Source: a virus | Taxonomy: Duplodnaviria; Heunggongvirae; Uroviricota; Caudoviricetes | DNA: 17,536 nucleotides | Reading direction: 5' to 3' (one strand) | IMG/VR virus record: IMGVR_UViG_2648501186_000010 | Location: 1-17,536 of that record | Position numbers and translations under genes: made by a program | Notes under the pieces: generated by a model | The model's database searches: none | What the model was told of the DNA's origin: nothing | Seen by the model: the letters and a program-made list of their open reading frames with translations, nothing else | Shown: positions 1 to 16,199 of the stretch, in pieces | Layout of the letters: each line of letters opens with the position of its first letter | How positions within the stretch are numbered: the first letter of the stretch is position 1

Positions 1-333
1 TTACTGGCAGGCTTTTTGTCCAATGTAGTATGCAATTGAGCGGTCAACTATAGGGGCCATATTTGGATCTGGTGCTGAGTTATTCATCTGCTCGATGGTC
101 TCACCGTCTCCAAGATATTTAACTGTCCCGGCAGTACAGTCGTACAGCCGCTTTGAATATGATGTTCCAGACGGCCCCTTTCTTTCAGTTGTTATAGTAG
201 CCATGCTGCCGTCGCGAGTCTTATCTAAAATCGTGTAACTAGCCTTCGTATCTGTTGGCACATAAACAACCTCAGCCGCAAACACATTAAATGAAACTGC
301 TGCCCCTACAGCTAATATAATGAAATTTTTCAT
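1..333 (-). CDS. Small secreted protein of unknown function (N-terminal signal peptide, two Cys in mature part); probably host flank or cargo
   Basis: ORF 1..393 begins at TTG; internal ATG at 333 gives MKNFIILAVGAAVSFNVFAAEVV..., a classic signal peptide with AxA-like cleavage site. Stop codon sits at the window edge. Lies outside the candidate att repeat. Confidence 0.5.
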   Translation of the reverse strand: MKNFIILAVGAAVSFNVFAAEVVYVPTDTKASYTILDKTRDGSMATITTERKGPSGTSYSKRLYDCTAGTVKYLGDGETIEQMNNSAPDPNMAPIVDRSIAYYIGQKACQ

Positions 334-354
334 ATCCCTATTCCTATCATTTGA

Positions 355-380
355 GTATGCAATAATCCTATCAAGGAACT
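355..380. repeat. Candidate attachment-site core, left copy (attR in P2 convention)
   Basis: gtATGCAATaATCCtaTCAAGGAac at 355..380 matches taATGCAATcATCCc-TCAAGGAtc at 17357..17380 (7+4+7 identical blocks, one indel). Located just beyond the terminal phage gene on this side. Confidence 0.4.
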
Positions 381-412
381 GAGAAAACGACAAAACCCGC
401 GTTTTGCGGGCT
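381..412 (-). terminator. Rho-independent terminator after the gpD-like gene
   Basis: Minus strand reads CCCGC-aaaac-GCGGG followed by ttttgtcgttttctc (stem 406..410 / 396..400, T-rich tail 381..395), directly downstream of the CDS ending at 424. Confidence 0.55.
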
Positions 413-423
413 GTCTGGAATGG

Positions 424-2124
424 TCAGGCAATGATGTTCTGGTACTTGCTCCGGGTCTGTCCGGCCTTTGTCGCCGTCCGGGTAAACGCTCCGGCATTGG
501 TTGGCGTACCAACACTGGGGTGCGAATGACTCGCACATTGCTGCGCCAGCTCTGCCAGTAAATCAATGGTGTCCAACATCATGGTCAGCGTGTTTACACT
601 TTCACTGCCGATATGGACGGTTGGCCCCATAATCTGCTGACCGCCCGATGCCACCGATTTGCGTAATGCAGCAATCTTTTCAGTCAGGGTTCCCCCCACA
701 TCCACATCTACGGCTCCCGCCACCTTAGTGGACTGTTTCTCGGTTATCTCAGTTTCGTCATTCCCTTCAATGCTGGCCAGCCTGTTACCTTTCACCGCCT
801 GGCTATAATCACCGGCGCTTACATGCTGGATGGCTCCGGCCAGCAGTGTGGCGGTTCCCAGTACCGTGGTTTTATCCGTGGCTTTCACCGTGGTTTCACG
901 GCTGACCAGCTCGCGCTGTTCTGTATCGGCTTTTACGGTTCGCACCATTGATGTTTCTCTGATGGTCTGATCGGTCTGCCTTACCCAGTCTCCAGCCTGC
1001 GTCACTCTCTGGGATACTTCTTCCCGCTGCTGCTGCAATTGCTCACCGGGTTTAACGTCCGGCAGGCTGGTACCATCCGGCAGGGTCTGCCTGATAAAGG
1101 GTTTATCCGGTCTGCCTCCCGTGAATGCAACCTCAACCAGCGTCCCTTCTGGCGGAAACTGAAACATACCCGAATCATTCCCGGCCATTGGTACCGGCAG
1201 CGGCACCGCTGAATAAACAGGTGTCTGATTGTCCGGATTTCCGTCTGCGTCAAGCAGCTGCACGTCCACGGCGTAACGTGGACGGAAGGGATCGGCAAAG
1301 TTACCGCTTTTTACCGGCTCTGAATGCGCCACGACTCTGGCCATCTTTGGCAAATGAAGCCCGGATGCCAGTTCCGGGTAATGGCTTTCAATCTGCCGTT
1401 GCGCCGGTGTTTTCTGCAAAGGTTTACCCGTTGCGCGGTTTCTCGGCGTCCATGTGATCGCCATCGTGTCATTAGTCAGGTGAACTTTAGTCACGCGTTC
1501 ACCGTTCATCTCCACCCCTGGCCGCATAGTCTGGATCACTGGTAATGTCACAGAGTTACCACCAGCAGCCCCCTGGCTGAACTCTGACGGGATTTCTACG
1601 GGACGACCGGCAAACAATGACTTTTCTGCACCGCCGACGTAAAGCGAACCATCAGGCAACTGGTACCAGATGTAATCCTGGATACTGAACGCCCTGCCCA
1701 GATTGTTCAGCAACTGATAGCCGGTACCGTTATGAGTAAAATGTGGGATAGGGGTATCGCTGTACTGTGCATCAGGCACACTGACCGTGATCCCGCTGTT
1801 TTCTTCCAGCCAGCCCGCAATTTCACGCAAAGTCGGGTGCTGAAACGAACATGGCCACATCCTTTCAAACACACCTACCAGTTCACGAATGAACAGACGC
1901 TGAAAACCGTTTTCTGCGGGCTGCGATCGCTCCACGTACCCCGTAAACCAGCGCAAAAGCAGATCGGTATACCCCACATCCAGCCGCACCAGTTTTCCGG
2001 TGTAATCGGTTGTTGTCTCTGCGGTGATGAAGCCCCGACCGCAGCTGTTCAGCTCCAGTACCAGGCTGGCATCCACCAGGTGAATTTCATCCGTTGAAAG
2101 GTAAAGACGTTTTACTGGTTTCAT
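424..2124 (-). CDS. Tail baseplate hub protein, gpD / gp27 / VgrG-like N-terminal region with ~180 aa C-terminal extension
   Basis: 566 aa. N-terminal segment RWFTGYVERSQPAENGFQRLFIRELVGVFERMWPCSFQHPTLREIAGWLEENSGI fits the conserved R-F-G-V...R-FQ...EI...L-E-G pattern of the gp27/gpD hub family. Position after the tape-measure gene and a gpU-like gene matches P2 T-U-D order. ATG at 2124 lies 2 nt after the upstream gene stop. Confidence 0.5.
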   Translation of the reverse strand: MKPVKRLYLSTDEIHLVDASLVLELNSCGRGFITAETTTDYTGKLVRLDVGYTDLLLRWFTGYVERSQPAENGFQRLFIRELVGVFERMWPCSFQHPTLREIAGWLEENSGITVSVPDAQYSDTPIPHFTHNGTGYQLLNNLGRAFSIQDYIWYQLPDGSLYVGGAEKSLFAGRPVEIPSEFSQGAAGGNSVTLPVIQTMRPGVEMNGERVTKVHLTNDTMAITWTPRNRATGKPLQKTPAQRQIESHYPELASGLHLPKMARVVAHSEPVKSGNFADPFRPRYAVDVQLLDADGNPDNQTPVYSAVPLPVPMAGNDSGMFQFPPEGTLVEVAFTGGRPDKPFIRQTLPDGTSLPDVKPGEQLQQQREEVSQRVTQAGDWVRQTDQTIRETSMVRTVKADTEQRELVSRETTVKATDKTTVLGTATLLAGAIQHVSAGDYSQAVKGNRLASIEGNDETEITEKQSTKVAGAVDVDVGGTLTEKIAALRKSVASGGQQIMGPTVHIGSESVNTLTMMLDTIDLLAELAQQCASHSHPSVGTPTNAGAFTRTATKAGQTRSKYQNIIA

Positions 2125-2126
2125 TA

Positions 2127-2672
2127 TTAACCCAAAGCATCATTGACGGGCTTCAGCACCTTGCGTTCAAACCACGTCAGTTTTTCTTCATCCTCTCCGG
2201 CAGACTGGCCACCGGACTGTCCCGCACTACCGGCAGTCTGTTTTTTTGCGGTCGTCTTACCTGTTGCCCTGGCCTCTCGCTTTTCCTGCACGCTGATATG
2301 TTCCGCCAGTGTGAATGTCACCAGCCAGGACATTTTCCCGTCCTGCTGGGGCGCATCCAGCATTCCGCTGAACGTTGCTTCACGAAAATTAACTGCACGG
2401 GCAACTTCATGCGCCACGCGGTACTTCTGACGATTACCACTGGCATCGGTAGCACTGGCCAGCTCAAAAATACGCTTCAGTATTTCAGGCTGTTTAAAAG
2501 GTATTTCACCGCTGATCCGCAGTTCCTTTCCCTTTGCTCCCTGCTCTGATTTTGTTGTGGCGCTGGTCTGGCCGGACTGATCTTTATCCTGAAACTGCTG
2601 TGAAACGGTCACCCGCATGTTTTTCAGCTGGATGGCCTCGCCATTAAGCACCAGTGTCGGGATCGAAGTCAT
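2127..2672 (-). CDS. Phage tail protein, gpU-like by position (between tape measure and hub)
   Basis: 181 aa ORF, ATG at 2672 preceded by AAGGGA. Structured N-terminal ~120 aa and Gly/Ser/Ala/Thr/Lys-rich C-terminal tail. Assignment is by synteny only. Confidence 0.4.
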   Translation of the reverse strand: MTSIPTLVLNGEAIQLKNMRVTVSQQFQDKDQSGQTSATTKSEQGAKGKELRISGEIPFKQPEILKRIFELASATDASGNRQKYRVAHEVARAVNFREATFSGMLDAPQQDGKMSWLVTFTLAEHISVQEKREARATGKTTAKKQTAGSAGQSGGQSAGEDEEKLTWFERKVLKPVNDALG

Positions 2673-3811
2673 GAATCATTCCCTTTATTCCATCAAGATT
2701 ATCACCAACCAGCATCATGGCTGCGGTGTAAACGGCAGACTGCTGCGGAATGTCCTTCATCAGTTCCAGTAACGTGGTGCCGGTGTCTCCGCTGGCAGTA
2801 AAAACCCACGCTCTGGCACTTTTTCCCTGTAAATCATTCAGGCCGCTGACCACGTCACTGATAAGCTGGTCACGCAGCTGCGTGAACTCGCCCAGCTGTT
2901 TTTTCAGCCCTTCGATATCAAACCCGGCACCCGCCGCCTTTTGTGCCTGGCTGATTGCCGCAGCAGATAAAGCAACCCTGCTGGTTGGTAACCGCCGTTA
3001 ACGCCCCCCAGATCCCGCGCAATCCCATCATGATGAATCTGGATACTCCCATCACGATATTGGCCACCGCCCCCACGGCGGCAAAGCTCAGTAGTGCCAT
3101 CGACGCATAACCAATCACACGGGCAATGTTAGGAAATAACTGCATCCAGCGGGCAAAGGTCTGCCCCATATCAGCCAGGCGATTCAGAACCGGATACAGC
3201 ACCGGGATCAGCGTCAGCCCGATCACGGTCTGAATGGCTTTCAGGATTTGCACAAAGCGATCCCACGGCTTAACCATTTTTTGAGCCATTTCCTGGGTAC
3301 GCTTCAGACCGTCCGCGCCGCCCAGTTCGGTGATGTTCCGCTGAAGTAACGCGACATTGCCGTAAAGCTGTTTAACCACTGCAGAACTGTCACCAAAGGC
3401 TGCATCCAGTTCCGCCTGGGCTTTCAGGTTCCCTTCAAGGCTTTTGCCATATTTGCCCTGCAACTTGATCAGCATTTCAGGCATGGACAGCATTTTGCCG
3501 GTGGAGTCAGTAAAGGACAGCCCCAGCTTTTTAGCGCCATCAATCGCACCAGTCATAAATCCTTCATAGGCGCTGCTGGCTTCCGTTCCCAGTGTCCGCT
3601 GAAGTTGCCCCAGAATGGCCAGCTGTTCATCCAGTCCCACGCCGTAGTTAGTCCCTACGCCGCGCGCACCTTCCATCAAATCCTTGATAGTGGCCATTTC
3701 TGTGCCAAATGTTTTGCGCATATAAACCATCTTGCCCGCCAGCTGCTCGGCAAATTCAACCTTGCCCAGTCTGGCGGCATCGGCGGAAAAGTTACCAAAC
3801 ATCTGCCCCAT
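2644..3811 (-). pseudogene. Tail tape measure protein (gpT-like) remnant: 5' end lost or fused to L, internal frameshift near 2983..2997
   Basis: Frame B (3811 down to ~2985) encodes a TMP-like domain with hydrophobic segments (VIGLTLIPVLYPVL, VIGYASMALLSFAAVGAVANIVMGV), then runs into junk and a stop at 2918. Protein-like sequence resumes in frame A (~2997 down to 2644: SRVALSAAAISQAQKAAGAGFDIEGL...IHDFDPDTGA). Frame B stays open upstream of the ATG at 3811 to a stop at 3938 with no convincing start. Confidence 0.55.
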
Positions 3812-4230
3812 AAATTCCGCCGTGTCCGCCGCTGTGGACTTGAGCGCAAAAGCCAGGGTATTTCCATACTTTCCTGTCCCGGATGAGTATCGCGCCGCCC
3901 GATAGTGGCGAACTCCCCCAGCAGATCCGCTTTTGCCCTAGCAAAAACGGCCTTCATATACTGGGCGCACAGGCTGTTCAGTCCGCCCATTTTTACACCT
4001 GGTACCTCTGCCGCCAGCGTGTAGCCTTTCGCTATCCAACTGGACTCCACGTTTTCCAGTTCCGCATTCACCTCCGCCACCGCTGCAAGCAACGCCTGGC
4101 TGATGGTGTCAGCGTCAATATCTGGCGGTAGTGACCGCTGCGCTTGAAAATCCTTCAGATTCAGATCTGGCCAGAATCCGTTATTGGTCAGCGGTTCATC
4201 CTGATAATCCAGCGGCTTTCCGCTAAACAT
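3676..4230 (-). CDS. L: Head completion/stabilisation protein gpL-like; 3' third looks out of frame or chimeric
   Basis: Immediately downstream of gpM as in P2. N-terminal two thirds protein-like (FWPDLNLKDFQAQRSLPPDIDADTISQALLAAVAEVNAELENV...). Last ~70 codons are Arg/Pro/Trp-rich and overlap the TMP frame by >100 nt. ATG at 4230 preceded by GGGGGA; the ORF could also start at GTG 4281. Confidence 0.5.
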   Translation of the reverse strand: MFSGKPLDYQDEPLTNNGFWPDLNLKDFQAQRSLPPDIDADTISQALLAAVAEVNAELENVESSWIAKGYTLAAEVPGVKMGGLNSLCAQYMKAVFARAKADLLGEFATIGRRDTHPGQESMEIPWLLRSSPQRRTRRNLWGRCLVTFPPMPPDWARLNLPSSWRARWFICAKHLAQKWPLSRI

Positions 4231-4326
4231 AAATCCCCCGAAAAAGGCGGACTGGCCGGTTTCCACGGCGCAGTTACACACAAGGTGTTCTGCCCTCCAC
4301 CGCGTCCGCCTGGCTTGCGGTAGTCT

Positions 4327-5028
4327 TTACCCTTGAGTCAGTTTTCGGATACGGGCGGCAATTGTCTGCCGCGCCGTTCTGACGCCAATTTTTGAGTAGT
4401 GTTTTTCTGCAATAGCCAGCAGCTGATCGGCTTTTTCCAGCGTTTCAATATCATCCACGCCCGCCGCCGTTTTCTGGCCATCGTCATTGCGTAGCAACTC
4501 CTGACCGGCAAACTTGAACCATTTGGCCGTCACCTGCTCATGCAGTCGCCAGGTGTTTGCCACCCGCTCAAACGTGCGGGTGAAATAAGGCTCCACACTT
4601 TCCCCGCGCCCTGCGGTTTCCTGCGCCCATGCCAGCATCGTATCCGCCACGAAAGTGGGAAAATTGCTGCGTAACCGATCCGGGGTTGCCTGCTGCTGGC
4701 TGATAGCAATGTCAGCCCAGTCCAGCGCCTTATCCAGATCGCCCACGTCAAACAGCCAGATAACACACCAGGCAAAAACCGGATTTGCATACTCCTGGCC
4801 ACTCTCCAGATAGGCTTCCACAGTGGGAACCCAGCGCGGCAACAGCACATTGCGTTTGTACTCGACGCGATCGGCGATGGTAGGCAGACTTCGAATATAT
4901 TCCACATCCGTTTCCAGCGCCCTGACCAGCAAGTGCATACTTTCCGTGGTTTCCAGTGCCTGGCTGCGCTTCAGCTTTTGTTCCATCGCAATACGCTGGC
5001 TGTGACGCTGCGCGGGGGAAAGTGCCAT
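4327..5028 (-). CDS. M: Terminase small (endonuclease) subunit, gpM-like
   Basis: 233 aa, between capsid gene N and L as in P2. ATG at 5028 lies 3 nt after the N stop, preceded by GGAGGG. Confidence 0.75.
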   Translation of the reverse strand: MALSPAQRHSQRIAMEQKLKRSQALETTESMHLLVRALETDVEYIRSLPTIADRVEYKRNVLLPRWVPTVEAYLESGQEYANPVFAWCVIWLFDVGDLDKALDWADIAISQQQATPDRLRSNFPTFVADTMLAWAQETAGRGESVEPYFTRTFERVANTWRLHEQVTAKWFKFAGQELLRNDDGQKTAAGVDDIETLEKADQLLAIAEKHYSKIGVRTARQTIAARIRKLTQG

Positions 5029-5031
5029 TTA

Positions 5032-6054
5032 TCAACCCTCCACCGGTTCGGAGACTTTGCCGATTGTCACAGCGGATTCATCAATAGCCGCATACAGCTC
5101 CGGCACTTCCACCGCGTAACCTTCATTGCGCAGGTATTTGTTTTCGAACTGCTTACGATCTTCAACAAACTCCGCCTTACGCATACGGGTATTGCGCTGG
5201 GTGTAGATGTGCAGGTTAGAAAGCGGCGTAACCACCATGCGTTTACCCGGCATAAACGGCGGGATAATAGCCGGACGGCCAGCAATGGTGCTTCCCAGCA
5301 TCTGCGCCGCGATTTTTTCAGTCGGACGGTCTGCTGCCTGATACAGTCGGTATTGTTCAGCTGCGACCAGATCGGCACCAACCAGAACAACCAGACGCGG
5401 GTCATTGCGGAACTGTGCCGGGATTTTGGCGTTAATCAGATCGGACGCCATTGCATCCAGTGATTTGTAATCCCCGGCCTCATCAAGCACCACGGCATCC
5501 GTCATAATCTGATTGCCGCCCAGCAGCGTTTTCATACGCTCATGCCAGCCAACGTTCACATCCTCGCCGTTCGGGTTAGTTTCCGGATCAGTGGTTTTCG
5601 CGCGACTTTTACCGTTAAAACCAATGCGCAACATATCCAGCGCAAAAGCCTGCGTGGTGAATGCCTGTACCAAGTTGTAAAACTCGTTTTCGTCCTTACC
5701 GGCGTTTGCCCAGACAGAAAGCAGATCCCAGCGCAACGCGGCACAGCTGTCTGTTTCAACCAGGGAATAGTCATTACCGTCAACGCCTACCTGACGAATG
5801 AAACGGCCATTTTCGCTGCGGCCGGTATGCAGCACAGAGGAACCGACAGAGATCACCTGGCCACTCAGCTGGTCAACATCCAGACAGGTGATCATGTTCA
5901 GGAACTCGACGGACTCCAGCAACGCAAGACGCAGCGCATTTTCCTGCGGGTCATTCAGGGAAAAATATCGACTGGTATCACGCGCACCAAACTGCTGCGC
6001 CATCCCCGCCGAATATTTATCCAGTAAATCCCGCGCACGATTATTAAGGTGCAT
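5032..6054 (-). CDS. N: Major capsid protein, P2 gpN family
   Basis: 340 aa from ATG 6054 (AAGGAG RBS just upstream; the track ORF extends to TTG 6069). Recalled similarity to the P2 N region (FNGKSRAKTTDPETNPNGEDVNVGWHERMK, PRLVVLVGADLV). Synteny O-N-M. Confidence 0.85.
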   Translation of the reverse strand: MHLNNRARDLLDKYSAGMAQQFGARDTSRYFSLNDPQENALRLALLESVEFLNMITCLDVDQLSGQVISVGSSVLHTGRSENGRFIRQVGVDGNDYSLVETDSCAALRWDLLSVWANAGKDENEFYNLVQAFTTQAFALDMLRIGFNGKSRAKTTDPETNPNGEDVNVGWHERMKTLLGGNQIMTDAVVLDEAGDYKSLDAMASDLINAKIPAQFRNDPRLVVLVGADLVAAEQYRLYQAADRPTEKIAAQMLGSTIAGRPAIIPPFMPGKRMVVTPLSNLHIYTQRNTRMRKAEFVEDRKQFENKYLRNEGYAVEVPELYAAIDESAVTIGKVSEPVEG

Positions 6055-6116
6055 AAAACTCCTTCGCAATTAAGCGATTTAAAAATATATTCTGGGCTAA
6101 TTAGCAATAAAGCGAA

Positions 6117-6920
6117 TTACAGGAAATTAAATTTCCCGGCTTTATCTTTTATAGTACGCCCCGGTGTACGGGTGTTTTTATTACCCAGTTCGTTAAAGCG
6201 GGTTACGATTTCTTTTGCATTATCGCGAATTGCCGCAAATTCCTGCGTATCCACCACTTCAGCAATTGTGTCAACATCACCCTGAACGTCATTCAGTTGA
6301 GTTTCAATTTTCGCCACTCGCGCTTCCAGATCGTTCACCACATTGGCAAGCGCCTGTAATTTATCTTCATCCGGAGCAGGATTATCCTGCGGCGTTTCAT
6401 CTTCAAACTTTGGCTTAATACCAAACAGTTTCTGCCAGTTCTTCATTCTTGCTTCCTGTTTAATTTTTCCGTCGCGGGAAATTACACAGCTGTAATATCC
6501 CTGCTTTGTTAATTTATTGCGCCGACTACTAAAGCGCAGCCGTGTGGTGCCAACGCTGGCAGGTGTATCTGTTACCGCCAGCCCTTTCAGGTAAGTACGC
6601 CCGCTACCGCGCCAGTTTTCTTCCGGCTCAATGGAGAAGAACAAAAGCTGATCTTCATGATTTGCGAAAATCAGACGCATATTCGGGCAAAGGCTGACAT
6701 ATAACCGTGCCAGTCCATCTTCACCATCATTCCAGGTGGCTTCCAGCACTTCACCAAAATTCCCGCAATCATCCTCATGTTCTGGCCAGATTAAAGCGAC
6801 ATAGTGGCTATAGTCATAGGTTTCCCCCATATCAATGATCCACTGCCGTTTAATTACCCTGCCATCAACGGTATCCCCTTCAGTAGCAACACACAGCCAG
6901 TCAGTTTTTAAATGTGACAT
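6117..6920 (-). CDS. O: Capsid scaffolding protein, gpO family
   Basis: 267 aa from ATG 6920 (GGGGGG RBS). N-terminus WLCVATEGDTVDGRVI resembles the gpO N-terminal motif, with a coiled-coil-like C-terminal half. Divergent from P as in P2. Confidence 0.8.
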   Translation of the reverse strand: MSHLKTDWLCVATEGDTVDGRVIKRQWIIDMGETYDYSHYVALIWPEHEDDCGNFGEVLEATWNDGEDGLARLYVSLCPNMRLIFANHEDQLLFFSIEPEENWRGSGRTYLKGLAVTDTPASVGTTRLRFSSRRNKLTKQGYYSCVISRDGKIKQEARMKNWQKLFGIKPKFEDETPQDNPAPDEDKLQALANVVNDLEARVAKIETQLNDVQGDVDTIAEVVDTQEFAAIRDNAKEIVTRFNELGNKNTRTPGRTIKDKAGKFNFL

Positions 6921-7002
6921 ATCCCCCCTGTTCCACTCCCTGACGCTGCAAACCAATTATTGCCAAATAAAACCACCACCGCATTACGCTTTATTCTGAA
7001 CA

Positions 7003-7081: not shown

Positions 7082-8857
7082 ATGGCTAAATACTCTGAAG
7101 AATTAAAAGGCGTTGTTCGCGCACTTTATCTGCGCCGCTATACGCCAAAGGAAATCGCATCTGAATTAAATCTGCCGAATGCGCGGATCGTTTACTACTG
7201 GGCGGAGAAATACAGCTGGGCGGATTTGCTCAGTTTTGAAAGCACAGAGGAAGCAATTGAACGCCGTTACCAGCTGCTGGCCAGCCGCGATAACAAAACC
7301 GATCTCGACCTGGAAGAAATGGACATGCTCATTGCTCATGCCACGAAACTGCGTGCGCAGAGTAATAAACACAAAGAGAAAATGGCCAGCGGTCAGAGTT
7401 CCGGGCAAGCAGCTGCGCGGGACAACAATGACGACGAATCACGCAGCAAACGGAAATACAAGAAAAACGATATTACGTCGCTGACGCAGGAGGACTTTGA
7501 CGCATGGGCTGAAGAACATCTTTTTGAATATCAGAAACACCTGCGCAATAACATTGGCCAGCTTGTCAGGAACATCCTGAAAAGCCGCCAGATCGGTGCG
7601 ACCTGGTATTTTGCGTTTGAAGCGTTTGAAAACGCGGTGATGACCGGCGATCCGCAAATCTTTCTGTCAGCGTCAAAGGCACAGGCTGAAGTGTTCCGGT
7701 CTTACATCGTGAATATTGCAGAGCAGTATTTCGGTATTACGCTAACCGGCAACCCGATCCGCTTAAGCAACGGCGCAGAACTGCGTTTTCTCTCCACCAA
7801 CAAAAACACCGCCCAGTCCTACAGTGGCCACCTGTACTGTGACGAATATTTCTGGGTGCCAAACTTTGCAAAACTTAACGAAGTGGCCAGCGCAATGGCC
7901 ACACATGACAAGTGGCGCACCACCTATTTTTCAACGCCATCGGCAAAAACGCACCAGGCTTACCCGTTCTGGACGGGCGATGAGTGGAAACAGGGCAGTA
8001 AAAAACGTGCGGCCATTAAGTTTCCGTCCTTTAACGACATGCGTGACGGCGGGCGACTCTGCCCGGATGGGCAATGGCGCTACGTCATTACGATGGAAGA
8101 TGCCATTGCGGGCGGTTTCAACCTGGCGAACATCGAGAAACTTCGCAACCGCTACAACGACGCCACTTTTAACATGCTCTATATGTGCGTGTTCGTTGAC
8201 AGCAAAGATTCCGTTTTCAGCTTTTCTGACCTAGAAGCCTGCGGCGTTGAAATCGACACCTGGCAGGATCACAACCCTGATGCAACGCGGCCATTCGGTG
8301 ACAGGCCAGTTTGGGGCGGCTTTGACCCGGCTCGCAGCGGTGATTTGTCTTGTTTTGTCATCATCGCCCCGCCGATGCTCGCCGTGGAGAAGTTCCGCGT
8401 TCTGAAGGTGATTTACTGGAAAGGCATGAACTTCCGGTATCAGGCAAAACAGATCGAGCAGTTGTTCAAAAAATACAACTTCACTTATCTGGGAGTAGAC
8501 GTTACCGGCATTGGCCAGGGTGTTTTTGACAACATTCAGCATTTTGCCATGCGCGTGGCCGTCCCTATTCGTTACGACCTGAACACCAAAAATCAACTGG
8601 TGCTGAAAGCGGTGGACGTGGTGGAAAGCCAACGTATTGAGTGGGATAAAAACCTGAAAGAGATCGCGGCCAGCTTTATGTCTGTGCGCCGAACCACCAC
8701 ACAAAGCGGCAACGCCATGACGTTTGTCGCTGACCGCAGCCAGGATACTGGCCACGCGGAGGCGTTCTGGGCGATTACCCACGGTCTGCATAACGAACCC
8801 CTTAACTATGAAAACAAACCTAAATCCCGCTGGGGTGTAAGGAAAGAGGCAGCATGA
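7082..8857 (+). CDS. P: Terminase large (ATPase) subunit, gpP family
   Basis: 591 aa (P2 gpP is about 590). Divergent from O, and its stop overlaps the Q start (ATGA), as in P2-like phages. Confidence 0.9.
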   Translation: MAKYSEELKGVVRALYLRRYTPKEIASELNLPNARIVYYWAEKYSWADLLSFESTEEAIERRYQLLASRDNKTDLDLEEMDMLIAHATKLRAQSNKHKEKMASGQSSGQAAARDNNDDESRSKRKYKKNDITSLTQEDFDAWAEEHLFEYQKHLRNNIGQLVRNILKSRQIGATWYFAFEAFENAVMTGDPQIFLSASKAQAEVFRSYIVNIAEQYFGITLTGNPIRLSNGAELRFLSTNKNTAQSYSGHLYCDEYFWVPNFAKLNEVASAMATHDKWRTTYFSTPSAKTHQAYPFWTGDEWKQGSKKRAAIKFPSFNDMRDGGRLCPDGQWRYVITMEDAIAGGFNLANIEKLRNRYNDATFNMLYMCVFVDSKDSVFSFSDLEACGVEIDTWQDHNPDATRPFGDRPVWGGFDPARSGDLSCFVIIAPPMLAVEKFRVLKVIYWKGMNFRYQAKQIEQLFKKYNFTYLGVDVTGIGQGVFDNIQHFAMRVAVPIRYDLNTKNQLVLKAVDVVESQRIEWDKNLKEIAASFMSVRRTTTQSGNAMTFVADRSQDTGHAEAFWAITHGLHNEPLNYENKPKSRWGVRKEAA

Positions 8858-9915
8858 GTAAAAAGAAACGCTTTGTTAAGCGCGACCAGCGCGGCGACAA
8901 ATCAAAAAAGATGAGCATTATCACATTCGGCAAACCTGAACCGGTTCTGACTACCGGCACAGATTACCGTGATATCTGGTACGACAATGCCGCCGATCAC
9001 TTCACCCAGCCGATTGACCGGCTGGCACTCGCACAGCTGATTAATCTTAACGGTCAGCACGGCGGCATCATTCACGCCCGCAAAAACATGATTGTTTCAG
9101 ACTACCTGGGGGGCGGGCTTATTCACGACCAGCTGGAAGCGGCAGCGTTTGACTATATAACCTTTGGGGATATTGCGATTGCCAAAATTCGTAACGGCTG
9201 GGGCGACGTGATCGCACTTGAACCCTTGCCCGGTCTGTATATTCGCCGCCGCAAAGTCAGAGATAACGCCCTGGATAAGCCCGGTGACTACGTGGTGTTA
9301 CAGGAAGGAGAACCGCAGGTATGGCCAGAAGAAGATATTATCTTCATCAAAATGTATGACCCACAACAGCATATCTACGGACTGCCGGACTACATCGGCG
9401 GTGTACATTCCGCGTTACTTAACAGTGAAGCGGTCATTTTCCGACGCCGCTATTACCACAACGGTGCGCACACAGGCGGTATTCTTTATACTCGCGATCC
9501 CAGCATGACGGACGAAATGGAGGAAGAAATTGAACAGCAGCTGCGTGACAGCAAAGGGATCGGTAACTTCTCCACCATCCTTGTAAACATTCCCGGTGGA
9601 GACGGCGACGCCATCAAATTCATTGAAATGGGGGATATTTCCGCGAAGGATGAATTTGCCAACATCAAAAACATCAGCGCCCAGGACATTCTGAACGCGC
9701 ACCGTTTCCCTGCCGGCCTCGCCGGTATTGTCCCGCAGAACACTGCCGGACTGGGGGATGTTGAAAAGGCTGAACGCATTTACAAGAAAAGCGAAATTGC
9801 CCCCATCCAGCGCCGTTTCATGCTGGCCGTTAACAACGATCCTGAAATACCGGAAAGGCTGCACCTTAACTTTGATTTAAGTTACACAGAATCAACGGAT
9901 AAGGGTGCGGCATGA
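8854..9915 (+). CDS. Q: Portal (capsid vertex) protein, gpQ family
   Basis: 353 aa directly downstream of and overlapping P; size and position match P2 gpQ. Confidence 0.9.
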   Translation: MSKKKRFVKRDQRGDKSKKMSIITFGKPEPVLTTGTDYRDIWYDNAADHFTQPIDRLALAQLINLNGQHGGIIHARKNMIVSDYLGGGLIHDQLEAAAFDYITFGDIAIAKIRNGWGDVIALEPLPGLYIRRRKVRDNALDKPGDYVVLQEGEPQVWPEEDIIFIKMYDPQQHIYGLPDYIGGVHSALLNSEAVIFRRRYYHNGAHTGGILYTRDPSMTDEMEEEIEQQLRDSKGIGNFSTILVNIPGGDGDAIKFIEMGDISAKDEFANIKNISAQDILNAHRFPAGLAGIVPQNTAGLGDVEKAERIYKKSEIAPIQRRFMLAVNNDPEIPERLHLNFDLSYTESTDKGAA

Positions 9916-9965
9916 GGCGAAAGAGGCTAAAATCCAGGCATCATTTAACAGCTGGAGCATGGAAT

Positions 9966-10235
9966 ATGCGAGTTCTGAAAATCGAATGCCCGGAATGCGG
10001 CTCAAAGGCTGTTATTCGTAAAACAAACAGGAAGCACCGGCAGATTGCCGATATTTACTGTGCCTGTTCAGATGTTGAGTGTGGCCACACGTTTGTTATG
10101 AATCTGACGTTCTCCCACACTCTCAGCCCCAGCGCTAAAACGGGTGATGCGATGGTGCAAAAAATACTGAATGCACTTTCACCCGATCAGCGCCAGATGG
10201 CATTAGACCTACTGAAAGCGACTCCCGCCGCCTGA
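9966..10235 (+). CDS. Ogr/Delta-family zinc-finger late transcription activator, with ~45 aa C-terminal extension
   Basis: MRVLKIECPECGSKAVIRKTNRKHRQIADIYCACSDVECGHTF matches the Ogr/Delta C-x2-C ... C-x4-C..TF pattern (P2 Ogr, 186 B). GGAG 9 nt upstream of ATG 9966; an alternative ATG at 9912 overlaps the Q stop. Confidence 0.7.
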   Translation: MRVLKIECPECGSKAVIRKTNRKHRQIADIYCACSDVECGHTFVMNLTFSHTLSPSAKTGDAMVQKILNALSPDQRQMALDLLKATPAA

Positions 10236-10415
10236 AATGCCCCCATTCTGGGGGCGTTGCCCTTCCTTTTTAACTATTTCGCGAACCTCTCCCGCAAGCT
10301 CTCCAATCCAGGCCAAAGCGATTGTTTTTTCTCTCTGGTTACTTTCGTAAACATGGGCAATTTTGGCCAATAACTCAATGCGTTCCAGCTGTGCCGACGC
10401 CTCCAAAAGATCCAT
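10209..10415 (-). CDS. Small protein (68 aa), candidate SOS-inducible antirepressor-type gene (Tum-like by position and regulation only)
   Basis: ATG at 10415 with GGGGG-containing RBS; helical-looking sequence (LERIELLAKIAHVYESNQREKTIALAWIGELAGEVREIVKK). A LexA-box-like site lies 25 bp upstream. Same strand as and downstream of A, where P2/186 carry accessory genes (tin/old, tum). Confidence 0.4.
   Translation of the reverse strand: MDLLEASAQLERIELLAKIAHVYESNQREKTIALAWIGELAGEVREIVKKEGQRPQNGGISGGGSRFQ
10240..10270 (+). terminator. Possible terminator hairpin after the ogr-like gene
   Basis: GCCCCCA-ttc-TGGGGGC stem-loop (10240..10256) followed by gttgcccttccttttt; the T-tract is offset from the stem, so weak. 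Confidence 0.3.
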
Positions 10416-10439
10416 TTAGCCCCCACAAGCAATAAATAA

Positions 10440-10455
10440 CTGGATATACATACAG
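10440..10455. promoter_or_regulatory. LexA-box-like site (CTGG-ATATACAT-ACAG; minus strand CTGTATGTATATCCAG)
   Basis: CTG-N10-CAG core with AT-rich centre; 14 of 16 matches to the CTGTATATATATACAG consensus. A minus-strand TTGTCA -35-like hexamer lies about 50 bp upstream of the box. Confidence 0.4.
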
Positions 10456-10534
10456 TACACCTTAAAGCACGAATTGTGAAATTTAATTTCCTGCCATCTA
10501 CTGACAAATGAATGCCTTTCACATAATTACACCG

Positions 10535-12556
10535 CTATAACCACCCCGGCCACAGTTCCTGCAATGGCTCGTTTTGAGTCTCTTTAAGCCGCCCGTTGCG
10601 GTAAATCAGAGCGCCCTGACCAAATCTCAAACCACTACCCCGCAAGAGAATGGCTATTTCTTCATCAGAACCATCAAAACCCCGACTGCGTAATTCCAGT
10701 TTTAACCGTCTGCGGGCTCCCCCCTCCGTACAGTTATTGACAGAACTCCAAGGGGCGGCGTTGCCGCCAGAAAAACCCGCCTCCGCTGGCGCTTCGGCCA
10801 ACTTCGCAACCTTTTGCCACTTAACCAGACGGGTGCAAACTTCTGAATCAGGAACCAAAGGAGAATAAACCCCCTGTATGCGCTGCACGTCCTCTGCATA
10901 CTCGTTGCCCTGTTCCGTAATTTCATAGGCCAGACGAACAACCAGATCACGGCGGGCAACCAGTGCACCGCCCTGCGCCTGGGTATATGCAGCCCAGTCC
11001 CCGACATCAGCAGCGGCCAGAACCGCATCCATTCTGCGATCGGTCAGCACCTGATCCCGCAACCGACGCAGCTCACGCCAGACAGTTACCGGCGCACCAC
11101 CAATCTGCTGAAACTGACGAATACGCCAGCGTGAAGCCCATGCAGAAACGGACTTAGCCATATCACGCAGGTTTTCGCCGGTTTCTTCGTCATGCTCACC
11201 ATCCAGCGCAAAACCATCAATATTTTTTGAAATGTATTTCGCGATGTAGCCCGTGGCCGAACCTTTGGCGGGATCGATAGCTTCAACATGAAAACGCGCC
11301 TTCAGCGCCTTTTCAGATTGCAGTTCTTCAGAATCGGTAATTCTGGCGTGATAGCAAAGAATATCGCGTACCGTGTCCACGTCATGCGGACGCATAAAAA
11401 GCAACATATGCCAGTGCGGTGTCCCGTCATGGTGAGGCTCAACAACCCGAAACCCAAATACATGAATACCCGCACGCGAGATCGCTGCGCGTGCTTTTGC
11501 CCATACGCCGCATAAATAGCGCTGGGTATCCTGCGGCGTACATCCATCCCATTGCGATACAAAGCCACCTTTGCTGTGCACTGCGTGGAAACGTGATGGC
11601 GCGGTGATGGTGTAAAACTCACCGGCCAGCCCTTCTTCATTGGCCATATCTTCAAACCCTCGCATTCTTACCATTAGTTCACATCGACGGATCGCCGGAT
11701 TTGCAACGCTGCGGTGCACCATGCTGTCCAGTGCAATGCGCAGCCCCTCATCATTCAGCAGATCAAACTTTTTAAAGAACTCCAGATTCCGCTTTTTCTG
11801 GTCTATCCATTCGTCCAGTGTTTTGCGGGATACATAAGCGCTGGCCGCTTTTTGTACCTGTCCCACCGCGATGGCCATATGTTCGCGCTGCATATCACGC
11901 GCACGTTTAAGACGTAGGTACCACCATTCCGGCGCCATCATGCGCAGTATCCCGGATTCCGCCTTACGCATTTCCAGTTGACCTTCATTGGCCTCATGTT
12001 CAGCCCAGTACGGCGGCTGGTTATTCAGCATCAGGCAACCCGCGCAAAGATGGCGGTATGATTCCAAGGTGCGGCGATGCAGCTCTCTGGCGTCGTCAGT
12101 GCCAGAGTCAAACTGTTCGGTGAAGTCATAAAGTGACTGGGAAATCCAACCAGATACCTGGCCAGCCAGTTTTTTAAGATCAGGACGGTCTAGTGACGGC
12201 AAGCGCTCCATCGACTTACCAAAAGGAAGATCAGCAGCGTCAGCGGCCAGCGAGTAACGCGCAGCCACTTTGCGCAGACGTGGCAATACACTCCCGCCGA
12301 TAGTCTGGCGCAGGAATGTATTGGCACGGCGACGCCCGTCACGACCAGCAAACAGCTTTTCGTAACGACGGCCAAAATACCCGGCTAACCAGTCGGGTAT
12401 CTCATGAAGGTACTGTGAGCGCCATTCGTAATCCTGTGGGTTAACCGCCCACAGGCGGCGCTCAGTGAGCGTGGCGTCTGTAGGTGTACCCGGTGCGAAC
12501 GTTTCACGCCGCCAGGTATCGACGGCGTGATGTTGGCCATTGGCGACAGGAGTCAT
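10535..12556 (-). CDS. A: Rolling-circle replication initiator (gpA family, HUH endonuclease)
   Basis: 673 aa with HUH-type motif (GTPHWHMLLF) and catalytic-Tyr motif (YIAKYISK) typical of P2/186 A proteins. Start ATG overlaps the dam stop (ATGA). Confidence 0.85.
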   Translation of the reverse strand: MTPVANGQHHAVDTWRRETFAPGTPTDATLTERRLWAVNPQDYEWRSQYLHEIPDWLAGYFGRRYEKLFAGRDGRRRANTFLRQTIGGSVLPRLRKVAARYSLAADAADLPFGKSMERLPSLDRPDLKKLAGQVSGWISQSLYDFTEQFDSGTDDARELHRRTLESYRHLCAGCLMLNNQPPYWAEHEANEGQLEMRKAESGILRMMAPEWWYLRLKRARDMQREHMAIAVGQVQKAASAYVSRKTLDEWIDQKKRNLEFFKKFDLLNDEGLRIALDSMVHRSVANPAIRRCELMVRMRGFEDMANEEGLAGEFYTITAPSRFHAVHSKGGFVSQWDGCTPQDTQRYLCGVWAKARAAISRAGIHVFGFRVVEPHHDGTPHWHMLLFMRPHDVDTVRDILCYHARITDSEELQSEKALKARFHVEAIDPAKGSATGYIAKYISKNIDGFALDGEHDEETGENLRDMAKSVSAWASRWRIRQFQQIGGAPVTVWRELRRLRDQVLTDRRMDAVLAAADVGDWAAYTQAQGGALVARRDLVVRLAYEITEQGNEYAEDVQRIQGVYSPLVPDSEVCTRLVKWQKVAKLAEAPAEAGFSGGNAAPWSSVNNCTEGGARRRLKLELRSRGFDGSDEEIAILLRGSGLRFGQGALIYRNGRLKETQNEPLQELWPGWL

Positions 12557-13413
12557 GCGCAGGCCATCGCTATAGAACCAAGCGGCGACTTCAGAATTAA
12601 CTCTGCGGCAACTTTCTGGCTTGCAGCTGCGGCACCAACACTACGTGGGGCATTAATGCGAACGGCTTCAAATCCGGCGTACAGGTAATGCACCATTTCC
12701 AGATCGGCATTAGAGGCCACAACCGGCACACCTTTTCTGGCCAGACGGCGCAACTTACGCGCCAGCCTCCCCTGATCCATGTGCGAAAAACCGCGCTCAT
12801 GGTAAGCGGTGAAATTGTCGCTTTCAGTCAGATAAGGCGGATCACAGTAAACAACGTCATTCCCGTCCCGAACCAAATCGAGCGTTTCTGAATAGTGGGC
12901 AGTAATGAACGTTGCGCGTTTCGCTTTTTCAGCAAAGGCACGGATTTCATCAGCGGGAAAATAAGGCTTTTTGTACTTACCGAACGGGACGTTGAACTGG
13001 CCTCGGCGATTATACCGGCACAGGCCATTGAAGCAGTGGCGATTCAGGTACAGGAAACGCGCAGCATTTTCAACAGATTCAGAACCGGCCTTACCACCAG
13101 AAAGATTGAAAGCATCACGCACTGCGTAATAGAAAATGGCACGGCTTTCTTCATCACCTAACGAACCGGCAGTAAACAGGATCTCCAGCTCATTCAGCAG
13201 CGCATCAGTGTGATACGCCATCGCCTTATAAAGATTAACCAGATCAGGATTCACATCTGCGATCAGATACTCGTCATAATCCGTATTCATCATGACAGCG
13301 CAGGAACCTGCGAACGGTTCAACCAGGCGTTTACCTTCTGGAAGGTGCGGACGCAGCATAGGCATAAGGCGGGCTTTGCTGCCCACCCATTTAAGCGGAG
13401 TTTTTATTGCCAT
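12553..13413 (-). CDS. dam: DNA adenine (N6) methyltransferase, Dam-like
   Basis: Motif I (VEPFAGSCAV) and motif IV DPPY; Dam-like N-terminus (WVGSKARL). ATG at 13413 chosen over the upstream in-frame start of the track ORF. Confidence 0.85.
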   Translation of the reverse strand: MAIKTPLKWVGSKARLMPMLRPHLPEGKRLVEPFAGSCAVMMNTDYDEYLIADVNPDLVNLYKAMAYHTDALLNELEILFTAGSLGDEESRAIFYYAVRDAFNLSGGKAGSESVENAARFLYLNRHCFNGLCRYNRRGQFNVPFGKYKKPYFPADEIRAFAEKAKRATFITAHYSETLDLVRDGNDVVYCDPPYLTESDNFTAYHERGFSHMDQGRLARKLRRLARKGVPVVASNADLEMVHYLYAGFEAVRINAPRSVGAAAASQKVAAELILKSPLGSIAMACA

Positions 13414-13637
13414 GCCGCACCGCCTTTGCTGCAAATCGCCGCGGCTTCTTCGCGGATCAACTCAACGATTTCCGTTGCGCTTAAACCTTCATTGGCTGCA
13501 TGGGTGGCCAGCTTATTCAGACGGGTGGAACACAAATCAGCAGCAGCGGCTTTACCTTCCTGCGTGGCTTTGGTGAGCATTGCCAGCAGGTCAGTGACTG
13601 ATTTTGTTGCGGGTAAATCCTGACGTGTCATATGCAT
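13404..13637 (-). CDS. Hypothetical small early protein (77 aa)
   Basis: ATG 13637 (or 13631) with AAGGA RBS; helical, Ala/Glu-rich; 3' end overlaps the dam start by 10 nt. No recognisable motif. Confidence 0.5.
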   Translation of the reverse strand: MHMTRQDLPATKSVTDLLAMLTKATQEGKAAAADLCSTRLNKLATHAANEGLSATEIVELIREEAAAICSKGGAAWQ

Positions 13638-13704
13638 TTTGGTTTCCTTAAGGCAAAAGAATCCCCGGCCACTTGAAACATGGCCAAAAAATTCAGGCGG
13701 TTAA

Positions 13705-14106
13705 TTAGTGAAAAGTGGGGTGTACTGTGGCAGCTGAGTAGTTCGGTACCGGAATCAGGTGCAGTTCATAGGTTGTCCGCCACCACTCCTGGATCAGTGC
13801 ATTTATCTCGCCAACTCCCAGCGCCCCGGCTGTATAGAAAATCGCACGAATCCCCGCCAGCGCTTCTATCTGGGCTTCTTTGCTTTCCGCTTCGCGATAC
13901 ACGCAGCACCAGAAAGCGGCATTGATCGCCAGCCAGTGACGCGGATTCGTCATGTGCTCGGTGTCATTGAAGAAGAACGGATGCAAAGCGATGCGGCCAT
14001 TTTTACTGGTGCTTTTCTCTGTAAACACTACAGCGTAGTTATGCGGGACACCCCACACAGCCAGTTCAGCCCCCAACGATTTACCCTCAACGGAAATAAT
14101 GGTCAT
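13705..14106 (-). CDS. Hypothetical early protein (133 aa)
   Basis: ATG at 14104..14106 overlaps the upstream gene stop (TAATG coupling). Trp/Cys-containing sequence with no family I recognise. Confidence 0.55.
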   Translation of the reverse strand: MTIISVEGKSLGAELAVWGVPHNYAVVFTEKSTSKNGRIALHPFFFNDTEHMTNPRHWLAINAAFWCCVYREAESKEAQIEALAGIRAIFYTAGALGVGEINALIQEWWRTTYELHLIPVPNYSAATVHPTFH

Positions 14107-14534
14107 TAGTGATTCCCCTGTTGCTGGAACTTATGGACGATATGAGGTGCAATCACCATCTGTACCCCACTACTGCTATAAATTGGATGTGCCTTTTTGA
14201 TCGGGCGGTTCGCGGTGCGCTTTGAAAAATCGCTGTCACGTAAACTGCCGAAACCTTCAAACGTTAACCGCGCCCGTGAAATGCCCTGGCGCAGTTGAAT
14301 CATGTCCCGATAGCCCAGGCGTTCATAAATCTCACGCCAGCAACATTTGCTTAAGTGGGCTTTAAATGCCCCGGAACCAGAAGTAACCGCAGCAGCATGA
14401 AGCACCACGCCGCGCCACTCCGGTGTTAAGTTGTCCCACCATTCAGCGGCCTCGCTGCTTTCGTTGAAGTATTTGCGGCGAATCTGTTTTAAATGCTCCA
14501 GCCCGCGCTTTTGCTGTTCCTGGCTAATCGCCAT
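14106..14534 (-). CDS. Hypothetical early protein (143 aa from ATG 14534; the ORF could instead start at GTG 14729, giving 207 aa)
   Basis: ATG 14534 preceded by GGGGG RBS (tataGGGGGcgttATG). The longer model starts at a GTG overlapping the cII stop. Occupies the fil/dhr/B position of 186/P2. Confidence 0.5.
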   Translation of the reverse strand: MAISQEQQKRGLEHLKQIRRKYFNESSEAAEWWDNLTPEWRGVVLHAAAVTSGSGAFKAHLSKCCWREIYERLGYRDMIQLRQGISRARLTFEGFGSLRDSDFSKRTANRPIKKAHPIYSSSGVQMVIAPHIVHKFQQQGNH

Positions 14535-14542
14535 AACGCCCC

Positions 14543-14716
14543 CTATAGTCCCATCAGACGACGCCACCACGGGCGGCGCGGCTGCTGGCCATTGAATTTG
14601 TACATGTGGCCAGGGTTCCAGCGCTGACCGTTTGGCAGTTCTATCCAGCCCGTTGAACCACTCGGCAACTGCATGGCTGGTGATTCTTTTTTCAGGTAAG
14701 TGACAAACGCTTTCAT
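14543..14716 (-). CDS. Candidate small ORF (57 aa) directly downstream of cII, alternative frame to the 207 aa model
   Basis: ATG at 14716 preceded by GAGGGA RBS, 10 nt after the cII stop; the stop at 14543..14545 lies 8 nt before the ATG at 14534. Translation MKAFVTYLKKESPAMQLPSGSTGWIELPNGQRWNPGHMYKFNGQQPRRPWWRRLMGL. Below the size cutoff of the supplied track. Confidence 0.3.
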   Translation of the reverse strand: MKAFVTYLKKESPAMQLPSGSTGWIELPNGQRWNPGHMYKFNGQQPRRPWWRRLMGL

Positions 14717-14725
14717 GGTGTTCCC

Positions 14726-15229
14726 TCACATCAGGCCGGTGGCGTTGGTTGTGACCAGCTCCACCGCCGCAGCCAGAACAGGCGCAGAGTGAATACGGCT
14801 TTCAACGGTATAAGCCAGCACGGATAAGCTACGGATTGCATCGCGGGCACGATCCAGAATTTGAGTACGGCGGGCGGCAGTCATATAGCCAGTTGATACG
14901 GCTTCCCCAGCAATCGCGCCCACACTGGCTGTGGCACTCAGTGCGCACAACTGCATGTTGCCTTCTGTGGCATTGTTCACCGGCACGGATGGAAGGCAGT
15001 TAATCTGACCTAACATCCCATCAAGCAAACGCGCATCTTCGGTGTAATCCGTGATAGCCAAAAGCTCATCACAGGTCAGGCGGTGCGGTTGTGCTGGGTT
15101 CAGTTTGTTGCGCAGGATCTGCGGCCTCATACCAACGGCAGCGGCCACATCTTCAAGATTGTGCTCAATTGCAAATGCTCGGCAAGCCGCATCAAAGTGC
15201 GCATGTTTAGAGGTCTGGTAATCAAACAT
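14726..15229 (-). CDS. cII: CII-like transcriptional activator (phage 186 CII family)
   Basis: N-terminus MFDYQTSKHAHFDAACRAFA closely resembles my recollection of 186 CII (MFDFQVSKHPHYDEACRAFA), with similar length (167 aa). Sits between apl and the early genes; GGGAGAGG RBS. Confidence 0.8.
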   Translation of the reverse strand: MFDYQTSKHAHFDAACRAFAIEHNLEDVAAAVGMRPQILRNKLNPAQPHRLTCDELLAITDYTEDARLLDGMLGQINCLPSVPVNNATEGNMQLCALSATASVGAIAGEAVSTGYMTAARRTQILDRARDAIRSLSVLAYTVESRIHSAPVLAAAVELVTTNATGLM

Positions 15230-16198: not shown

Positions 16199-16199
16199 A

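Follow-up and report, generated by a model that had tools for sequence, protein, structure and literature searches.

Very probably a young defective prophage of an ESSI-2-like phage, carrying two internal deletions in its late genes

The DNA analysed here (the window, 17,536 bp at its full length) very probably represents a young defective prophage of an ESSI-2-like phage that has suffered two internal deletions. All 17,536 bases fall into three colinear blocks that are 99.9% identical to an intact ESSI-2-like prophage of E. coli 1919D3 (NZ_CP046006.1, 3,052,2xx-3,081,1xx), which was used as the reference. The BLAST blocks span window positions 1-2990, 2985-3862 and 3861-17536. The two elements are separated by just 19 substitutions and share gene order and orientation outside the deletions, while the difference in size between them is exactly 10,163 bp (4,818 + 5,345). 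Since each flank is 99.9% identical over 0.9-13.7 kb and the breakpoints are base-precise, a chance resemblance was dismissed. An earlier reading of the window, made from its letters only (the sequence-only reading), had preferred a decaying prophage, and it is this option that the two late-operon deletions, viewed against the intact prophage, best support.

The element is integrated in the chromosome beside its own integrase gene, at the mntR/mntS site that it shares with the 1919D3 prophage: mntS (17408..17536) lies downstream of the integrase gene, and the opposite flank, as seen in the identical locus of another assembly, consists of mntR, ybiR and ldtB. A search for the att core returned an 11-bp common motif alone (TATAATATAGC), weak evidence that was used just to approximate the element size at ~18.8 kb. 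The window is 94.6-95.5% identical to phages ESSI2_ev015, ev129 and ev040 over 83-84% of its length, and 77% identical to Cronobacter phage ESSI-2. Judged by these sequence identities, the element is derived from an ESSI-2-like temperate myophage of the genus Quadragintavirus (Peduoviridae), the taxonomy being that of the NC_049395.1 record. In the reference, a complete set of tail and lysis genes lies between the breakpoints (RefSeq annotation and PHROG matches), and the late region of this prophage type is 100% identical in six other complete genomes.

The first deletion junction was placed at 3861..3862 by a three-way alignment with both flanks of the 1919D3 prophage and by the BLAST blocks. 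Here, 4,818 bp are gone, with a 2-bp microhomology (TT) at the junction, and codon 123 of the 150-codon gpL gene is fused, with a shift of frame, to codon 128 of the tape measure protein (TMP) gene; the terminator, neck, sheath, tube, holin, endolysin, spanin and chaperone genes have been removed. What is left of gpL (head-tail adaptor/head completion) are its N-terminal 123 codons (3862..4230, minus strand; Pfam Phage_GPL, E=2e-31), colinear with positions 20001..20370 of the 1919D3 locus, so that the last 27 of 150 residues (~18%) are absent. The gpL-like ORF (3676..4281, or 3676..4230 from the annotated ATG) accordingly matches only positions 1-108 of the 139 in the Phage_GPL profile, as against positions 4-157 of 158 in PHROG 71 ('head-tail adaptor Ad1') for the intact gpL of the reference. 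Beyond the junction, the ORF runs on in the wrong frame over TMP-derived DNA for 61 codons and a stop (3676..3861, minus strand): its translation reads ...GQESM and then EIPWLLRSSPQRRTRRNLWGR..., the start of a nonsense tail, and Pfam returned no match beyond residue 137 of the 201-aa ORF. The truncated gpL fusion was also looked up as an exact product of 184 aa and of 201 aa, without a hit, which probably reflects gene callers skipping that ORF, and a PDB sequence search with intact gpL returned no solved relative.

The sequence-only reading had remarked that the L frame turns Arg/Pro/Trp-rich and had proposed a deletion fusing gene L to an internal part of gene T. Both points are upheld, the former by the Phage_GPL match, which stops and is followed by unrelated sequence, and the latter by alignment to the 99.9%-identical intact prophage. 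Its breakpoint estimate of 3870..3940 pointed to a real L/T junction, but one that sits at 3861/3862, 8 nt outside that range.

The TMP-derived DNA is an internal, 875-bp fragment of the tape measure gene (codons 128 to ~420 of 655; 2988..3862, minus strand), 99.9% identical to positions 14307..15184 of the 1919D3 locus and falling within the annotated TMP CDS (13598..15565). It has neither the native start nor the native stop, and the TMP-like frame matches only positions 63-201 of the PhageMin_Tail profile. The longest ORF in this remnant (2918..3811, minus strand) begins at an internal ATG and encodes 297 aa, of which 275 are TMP residues 145-419 at 100% identity and the remaining 22 are frameshifted junk residues, the frame ending at a stop at 2918. 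Upstream of that ATG, at 3811, the frame is open from 3937, as had been noticed from the sequence. The proposal that 2644..3937 forms one TMP reading frame did not survive, however, as a second junction at 2988-2990 splits the TMP DNA from another gene. This second deletion was overlooked in the sequence-only reading, which proposed a single one.

The second junction (2988..2990) was established by three-way alignment and by the BLAST blocks 1-2990 and 2985-3862. It marks the loss of 5,345 bp, has an exact GTA microhomology (5/6 over 2985-2990), and leads from TMP codon ~420 to codon ~127 of a 241-codon late gene, out of frame; baseplate and tail fibre genes have been removed. Of the 241-codon gene, the intact homologue of which belongs to PHROG 1677 (E=2e-75), the N-terminal half is deleted and only the C-terminal 114 codons persist (2644..2987, minus strand), colinear with positions 8621..8964 of the CDS at 8621..9346 in the 1919D3 locus. 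The frame of this stub differs from the TMP frame.

Relative to the 1919D3 prophage, 15 genes are wholly lost and three are left as out-of-frame stubs, so that genes for virion formation and lysis are absent or truncated. The losses comprise the tail terminator, neck, sheath, tube, holin, endolysin, spanin, hypothetical, tail chaperone and DUF6890 genes, together with the DUF2590 gene, baseplate J, a tail protein, the tail fibre and a fibre assembly gene. The claim that lysis and most tail genes are missing is thus correct, with the qualification that the two last baseplate genes survive intact. One encodes a 181-aa baseplate-complex protein of the HP1 ORF34 family (2127..2672, minus strand; Pfam PF25759, E=8e-54) and has no stops; the other encodes a 566-aa baseplate or spike-like protein (424..2124, minus strand; PHROG 2258 'baseplate protein', E=5e-279) with weak Phage_base_V and Gp5_C matches. 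Each differs from its 1919D3 counterpart by one amino acid.

The 20 remaining CDS are all intact, with 0-2 amino acid differences each from the reference. Pfam matches identify the small terminase (4327..5028), the P2-family capsid (5032..6054) and the gpO scaffold (6117..6920) on the minus strand, and the large terminase (7082..8857) and portal (8854..9915) on the plus strand, all free of internal stops. The early region (9912..17240) holds 12 CDS, all full length; named after the RefSeq annotation of the 1919D3 prophage, they include an ogr-like late activator, the gpA replication endonuclease, a Dam methylase, a CII-like regulator, a Cox-like protein, the CI repressor and the integrase. It had been stated that integrase, switch, replication, terminase, portal and capsid genes are kept; these, and the scaffold gene, are indeed intact, although the head module is incomplete, as gpL lacks its last 27 residues. 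The surviving genes are in unusually pristine condition, and superficially the kept set looks like that of a capsid-forming satellite.

The defective prophage is very probably the product of two illegitimate-recombination deletions at 2-3 bp of microhomology, which together took 10,163 bp out of the late operon: the first spans gpL codon 124 to TMP codon 127, and the second TMP codon ~420 to codon ~127 of the downstream 241-codon gene. No observation directly speaks against this account. As no further lesion has accumulated, these deletions appear to be recent. The element would be unable to make tails or complete heads or to lyse the cell, yet it probably maintains lysogeny and immunity, and perhaps it excises and replicates.

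The double-deletion element is found, 100% identical, on a handful of other assemblies, and the 297-aa TMP-remnant product has been called on 17 public contigs. Both junctions are identical in independently assembled NCBI and Logan contigs from several sequencing runs, which are 100% identical over 13.8 kb, and the contigs bearing them reach ~313 kb. In contrast, not one of 5,426 complete E. coli genomes carries the double deletion, and exact scans for the first junction found it neither among 185,579 species-representative genomes nor in the JGI metagenomes. Decay of this phage group is more widespread than this one variant: of the 52 complete E. coli genomes that gave a match, no more than 26 keep at least 80% of the late region, and the other 26 display many differing, partial patterns. 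PSJ-16 carries a ~4-kb remnant of the same phage at mntR/mntS and must have decayed independently, since it retains the gpL 3' end that is deleted in the window. Stubs in other decayed prophages of the group are annotated as 'partial in the middle of a contig'.

Among the other explanations, the one that survives best, though we consider it unlikely, is that of a domesticated remnant kept for host benefit, be it superinfection immunity conferred by CI, a cargo gene for serine acetyltransferase or the Dam methylase, with the deletions having been selected for abolishing lysis. Genes for regulation and integration are intact, as are the cargo genes, and loss of the lysis genes lifts the cost of induction; furthermore, this proposal is compatible with a defective prophage rather than opposed to it. 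Long-term retention, however, is without evidence for an element that is rare and merely 19 substitutions away from the intact phage, and head genes of no obvious host benefit have been kept too.

It is far less probable that the element is a helper-dependent or nascent capsid-forming satellite, which would build its own P2-type heads and borrow the adaptor, tails and lysis functions of an ESSI-2-like phage. The intact set of integrase, CI/Cox switch, gpA, both terminases, portal, scaffold, capsid and ogr-like activator would suit such a lifestyle, as would the absence of holin, endolysin, spanin, sheath, tube and fibre genes, and two prophages at the ybjL site (of E. coli EcPF15 and 300709) have likewise kept head genes and lost tail and lysis genes. 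Against this, the gpL of the window, short of ~18% of its residues, carries the 61-residue nonsense tail, and neither junction falls on a clean gene boundary, both being frameshifted stubs. [quoted passage not shown] The known copies are all 100% identical and the junction is missing from the complete E. coli, species-representative and JGI metagenome sets, so that nothing points to spread or to diversification since the deletions. Moreover, in EcPF15 and 300709 the deletion begins within the small terminase gene, and these head-retaining relatives are therefore unable to package DNA. Finally, going by general knowledge of cos packaging, ~18.8 kb would fill just ~65% of a head sized for ~29 kb. 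The sequence-only reading had already ranked a helper-dependent capsid element as the less likely option, and the broken adaptor, leftover baseplate genes and frameshifted junctions make it very unlikely, the loss of the last gpL residues weakening it further. We would give only a very slim chance to the related idea of a proto-satellite at birth, which excises, replicates and packages its 18.8 kb in its own heads while a co-infecting ESSI-2-like phage provides gpL, tails and lysis; if true, it would show that capsid-forming satellites can arise from Peduoviridae through simple deletion.

An assembly or scaffolding artefact, in which the host has an intact prophage and the assembler dropped 10 kb, can be set aside with near certainty: the junctions do occur only in draft and Logan assemblies and in no complete, closed E. 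coli genome, but both recur across an NCBI assembly and the Logan assemblies of several runs, on the long contigs noted above, they carry only 2-3 bp of microhomology and no repeat able to collapse an assembly, and an 875-bp island between two gaps is atypical of assembler errors.

The case has little importance outside annotation. There, the three ORFs in 2644..4281 should be listed as pseudogene fragments and not as genes, and the proper label for the locus is a defective Quadragintavirus prophage, neither an intact phage nor a satellite. Still, it offers a clean, base-resolved case of early prophage decay, with two microhomology deletions and no other lesions, and together with other deletion variants of the phage group it could help in studying how and where prophages first become inactivated.

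Comparison with known systems places the element among the ESSI-2-like phages. It resembles P2/186 in its P2-family capsid, gpO scaffold, gpM, gpL, gpP/gpQ-type terminase and portal, as well as in gpA, the ogr-like activator and the CI/Cox-type switch, but its relatives possess a DUF2586-type sheath, HP1 ORF34-type baseplate genes and a different tail and lysis order. The late genes of the intact relatives run L, terminator, neck, sheath, tube, holin, endolysin, spanin, hypothetical, chaperone, DUF6890 and T, followed by baseplate, fibre and then three more genes. The P2/186 frame assumed in the sequence-only reading (L, about 15 genes, then T) was consequently rejected, as the relatives are ESSI-2-like Quadragintavirus phages in which lysis lies between the tube and chaperone genes and baseplate and fibre follow T; with the order so different, the P2 list (X, Y, K, R, S, V, W, J, I, H, G, FI, FII, E) is not transferable one-to-one. 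ESSI-2 and the ESSI2_ev phages have the same late gene order as the intact relative of the window and are complete at ~29-31 kb, with sheath, tube, lysis cassette, 655-aa TMP, baseplate and fibres, most of which the window is without. The ESSI2_ev phages are plaque-forming temperate isolates from infant gut viromes (PMC6969025), and as these phages of ~30.6 kb share the gene order of the intact prophage, the intact gene design is infectious.

Like cfPICIs, the element encodes capsid, portal and both terminase subunits itself and lacks holin, sheath, tube and fibre genes; it differs in its P2-type head and P2-type regulatory and replication module, in its broken adaptor, leftover baseplate genes and frameshifted junctions, and in having no diversified family. 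Specifically, the holin is absent, but PHROG 2258 and HP1_ORF34 proteins and a PhageMin_Tail fragment are present; the sole adaptor, gpL (PHROG 71), is cut at 123/150 and both terminator and neck are deleted; and in place of a PICI-type left module (integrase, AlpA/MerR/Stl, primase-replicase) the 99.9%-identical 1919D3 annotation shows a P2-type one with CI repressor, Cox-like and CII-like proteins and gpA. On these three grounds a cfPICI identity was rejected. A P4-like satellite was likewise rejected, as the element has capsid, scaffold, portal and terminase genes of its own; the annotation of the 1919D3 prophage lists no Sid, Psu or alpha gene, and the ogr/Delta-like zinc-finger gene is common to the window element and the intact phage. 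Parallels are found in the EcPF15, 300709 and PSJ-16 prophages, with late genes internally deleted as in the window, but with breakpoints that differ from those of the window and are independent of them.

The ORF listing and Pfam scans of the window reveal a gene arrangement of the P2-family temperate phage type. On the minus strand lie genes for the gpO scaffold (6117..6920), a P2-family major capsid protein (5032..6054) and the small terminase gpM (4327..5028), followed by a gpL-like ORF (3676..4281, annotated ATG at 4230), a 297-aa ORF that matches PhageMin_Tail in part (2918..3811), a 69-aa ORF (2644..2853; ORF listing), an HP1_ORF34 baseplate-complex gene (2127..2672) and a 566-aa baseplate/spike-like gene (424..2124). 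The plus strand carries the large terminase (7082..8857), the portal (8854..9915) and, directly downstream of the portal gene, an intact ogr/Delta-like zinc-finger late activator (9912-10235). An early region of gpA, Dam, CII-like, Cox-like, CI and integrase genes comes next, with the host gene mntS at the right edge.

When window positions 1..7000 were searched by megablast in 5,426 complete E. coli genomes, seven showed 99.9% identity ending exactly at 3861. In the L001 locus of E. coli 1919D3, mntR and mntS flank a complete prophage, and the entire window aligns with L001 by BLAST in three colinear blocks: 1-2990 with L001 5978-8967 (99.93%), 2985-3862 with L001 14307-15184 (99.89%) and 3861-17536 with L001 20001-33676 (99.88%). 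This comparison with a complete relative, as proposed in the earlier sequence-only reading, located both deletions: the window is shorter than L001 by exactly 10,163 bp, of which the loss at junction 1 accounts for 4,818 bp and that at junction 2 for 5,345 bp. In a three-way alignment, junction 1 displays 2 bp of microhomology (TT) and junction 2 displays 3 bp if exact (GTA), or 5/6 over 2985-2990; such short microhomology fits illegitimate recombination.

The gpL-like ORF matches Phage_GPL over profile positions 1-108/139 only, and its translation switches abruptly after ...THPGQESM into EIPWLLRSSPQRRTRRNLWGR..., the turn into unrelated sequence that had been noticed from the sequence alone. 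Intact gpL has 150 codons and matches PHROG 71 'head-tail adaptor Ad1' over the entire length of that profile (PHROG scan). In the window, gpL codon 123 ends at 3862 and is joined to codon 128 of the tape measure (TMP) gene in a different frame, so that 61 nonsense codons precede a stop at 3676. The PhageMin_Tail match of the TMP-like frame does not begin until profile position 63, and the frame is indeed open above its first ATG (3811) up to 3937 without a start codon; the suspected fusion of L to an internal part of T is borne out by the BLAST blocks, with the junction at 3861/3862. The region 2644..3937 had also been taken as one frame, but a second junction divides it into pieces of two genes. 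TMP-derived DNA covers 2988..3862 (codons 128 to ~420 of 655), and the 297-aa ORF is 100% identical to TMP residues 145-419 up to its last 22 residues, which are frameshifted. At junction 2, the TMP fragment is fused out of frame to approximately codon 127 of a 241-codon late gene of PHROG 1677, a function-unknown family, of which the last 114 codons alone are left (2644..2987). Truncated TMPs of 413-414 aa in other E. coli assemblies (P0008, P0009 and P0015, one of them on a 254-kb contig) cover residues 1 to ~412 at 96% identity and end no more than ~8 codons away from the TMP breakpoint of deletion 2 (~codon 420), which may reflect coincidence or a fragile spot.

RefSeq annotations for L001 and phage ESSI2_ev015, in addition to PHROG scans, identify the lost genes. 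Deletion 1 removed the tail terminator, neck/tail completion protein, sheath and tube, the lysis genes (holin, M15 endolysin and Rz-like spanin), the chaperone for tail assembly, a DUF6890 gene, one small hypothetical gene and the first 127 residues of TMP. Deletion 2 removed the C-terminus of TMP along with baseplate J, the tail fibre and its assembly protein, another tail protein and a DUF2590 gene. Together, 15 genes are wholly gone and 3 truncated, in agreement with the claim that lysis and most tail genes are missing. All other L001 CDS are full-length ORFs in the window (19 prophage genes and the flanking mntS); none has an internal stop, and each differs from its L001 counterpart by 0-2 amino acids. 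They include the integrase, switch, replication, terminase, portal and capsid genes correctly listed as kept. Substitutions relative to L001 number 19 in all. The deleted element would likely still confer CI immunity, and its excision and replication may persist; tail building and cell lysis would be beyond it, as would head completion, because gpL is truncated.

The exact 297-aa remnant was called on 17 public contigs, including NCBI GCA_932906455.1 and several Logan runs. Three carrier loci are 100% identical to the window across both junctions, for 13.8 kb in L005 and L006 and for the full 2.5 kb of L007, and both junctions are therefore real and reproducible. The double-deletion architecture occurs in no complete E. 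coli genome (megablast, 5,426 searched), and junction 1 was not found in 185,579 species-representative genomes or in JGI metagenomes. The carriers show no diversification, in keeping with one recent clone. The host flank of L005 (14000-19788, against L001 1-4561; mntR, ybiR, ldtB and ybiT) differs from that of 1919D3 by 0.68% (31/4,561 bases), against ~0.1% for the prophage, which suggests that different E. coli lineages recently gained the phage horizontally, here shortly before the deletions. An 11-bp motif, TATAATATAGC, common to both prophage-host boundaries (window 17328-17338, L001 4562-4572), is a candidate att core, although so short a match could be chance; it lies inside the mntR-mntS intergenic region, and the prophage thus parts mntS from mntR.

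The late region is matched in 52 complete E. coli genomes: 26 of them retain 80% or more of that region, and the remainder present many differing partial patterns. Two relatives at the ybjL site, in EcPF15 (L002 14390-14418) and 300709 (L003 about 13753-14424), with 86-94% identity, have lost the tail and lysis block and keep the scaffold, capsid, large terminase and portal genes; their deletions begin inside the small terminase gene, at about codons 44 and 70, and extend into the 241-codon gene or that for fibre assembly. These losses are independent. At mntR/mntS, PSJ-16 (L008 4001-6393) retains ~4 kb of the same phage (99.8%, at least three deletions), in which part of the 566-aa baseplate gene, a piece of the terminator and a gpL 3' fragment survive beside an integrase gene truncated at its 5' end. 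Decay has gone further in this remnant than in the window, and independently, since the remnant keeps the gpL 3' end missing in the window. The varied deletion patterns argue for unselected or loosely selected prophage erosion, and not for a conserved head-only design.

We are confident that the window is a young defective prophage made by two microhomology-mediated deletions, an ordinary and already well-understood phenomenon. A decaying prophage was the preferred sequence-only reading and is correct, once the second deletion, another phage subgroup and a compromised head-completion gene are added. Domestication for immunity or the cargo gene is compatible with this explanation but improbable. 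A helper-dependent satellite that forms its own capsids is highly improbable: the element departs from the cfPICI criteria (PMC10085698), in that it retains tail components, its head-tail adaptor is broken and its regulatory and replication module is P2-type. Furthermore, both junctions are frameshifted stubs, no diversified family of such elements exists, and a genome of ~18.8 kb, as sized from the weak 11-bp att candidate, would under-fill a ~29 kb head. Least credible of all is an assembly artefact, since the same junctions recur in independent assemblies and the microhomology offers no repeat able to collapse an assembly.

The nearest named phages of this defective prophage are Escherichia phages ESSI2_ev015, ev129 and ev040 (94.6-95.5% identity over 83-84% of the window), classed as Peduoviridae, genus Quadragintavirus, followed by Cronobacter phage ESSI-2 (77%). 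The ESSI2_ev phages were isolated from infant gut viromes as temperate coliphages that form plaques (PMC6969025), and the intact architecture is therefore that of a working phage. A serine acetyltransferase (hexapeptide-repeat) gene, likely lysogenic-conversion cargo, lies outside the window at the prophage left end (L005 14433-15146, L001 4652-5356); it is also present in ESSI2_ev015 and is kept in the deleted element and the PSJ-16 remnant. The late gene order of the ESSI2_ev/ESSI-2 phages differs from that of P2/186, and the P2/186 gene list initially invoked is thus not literal, while its tally of about 15 missing genes was right. The ogr-like gene sits just 3' of the portal in the window, whereas the ogr of P2 is placed elsewhere.
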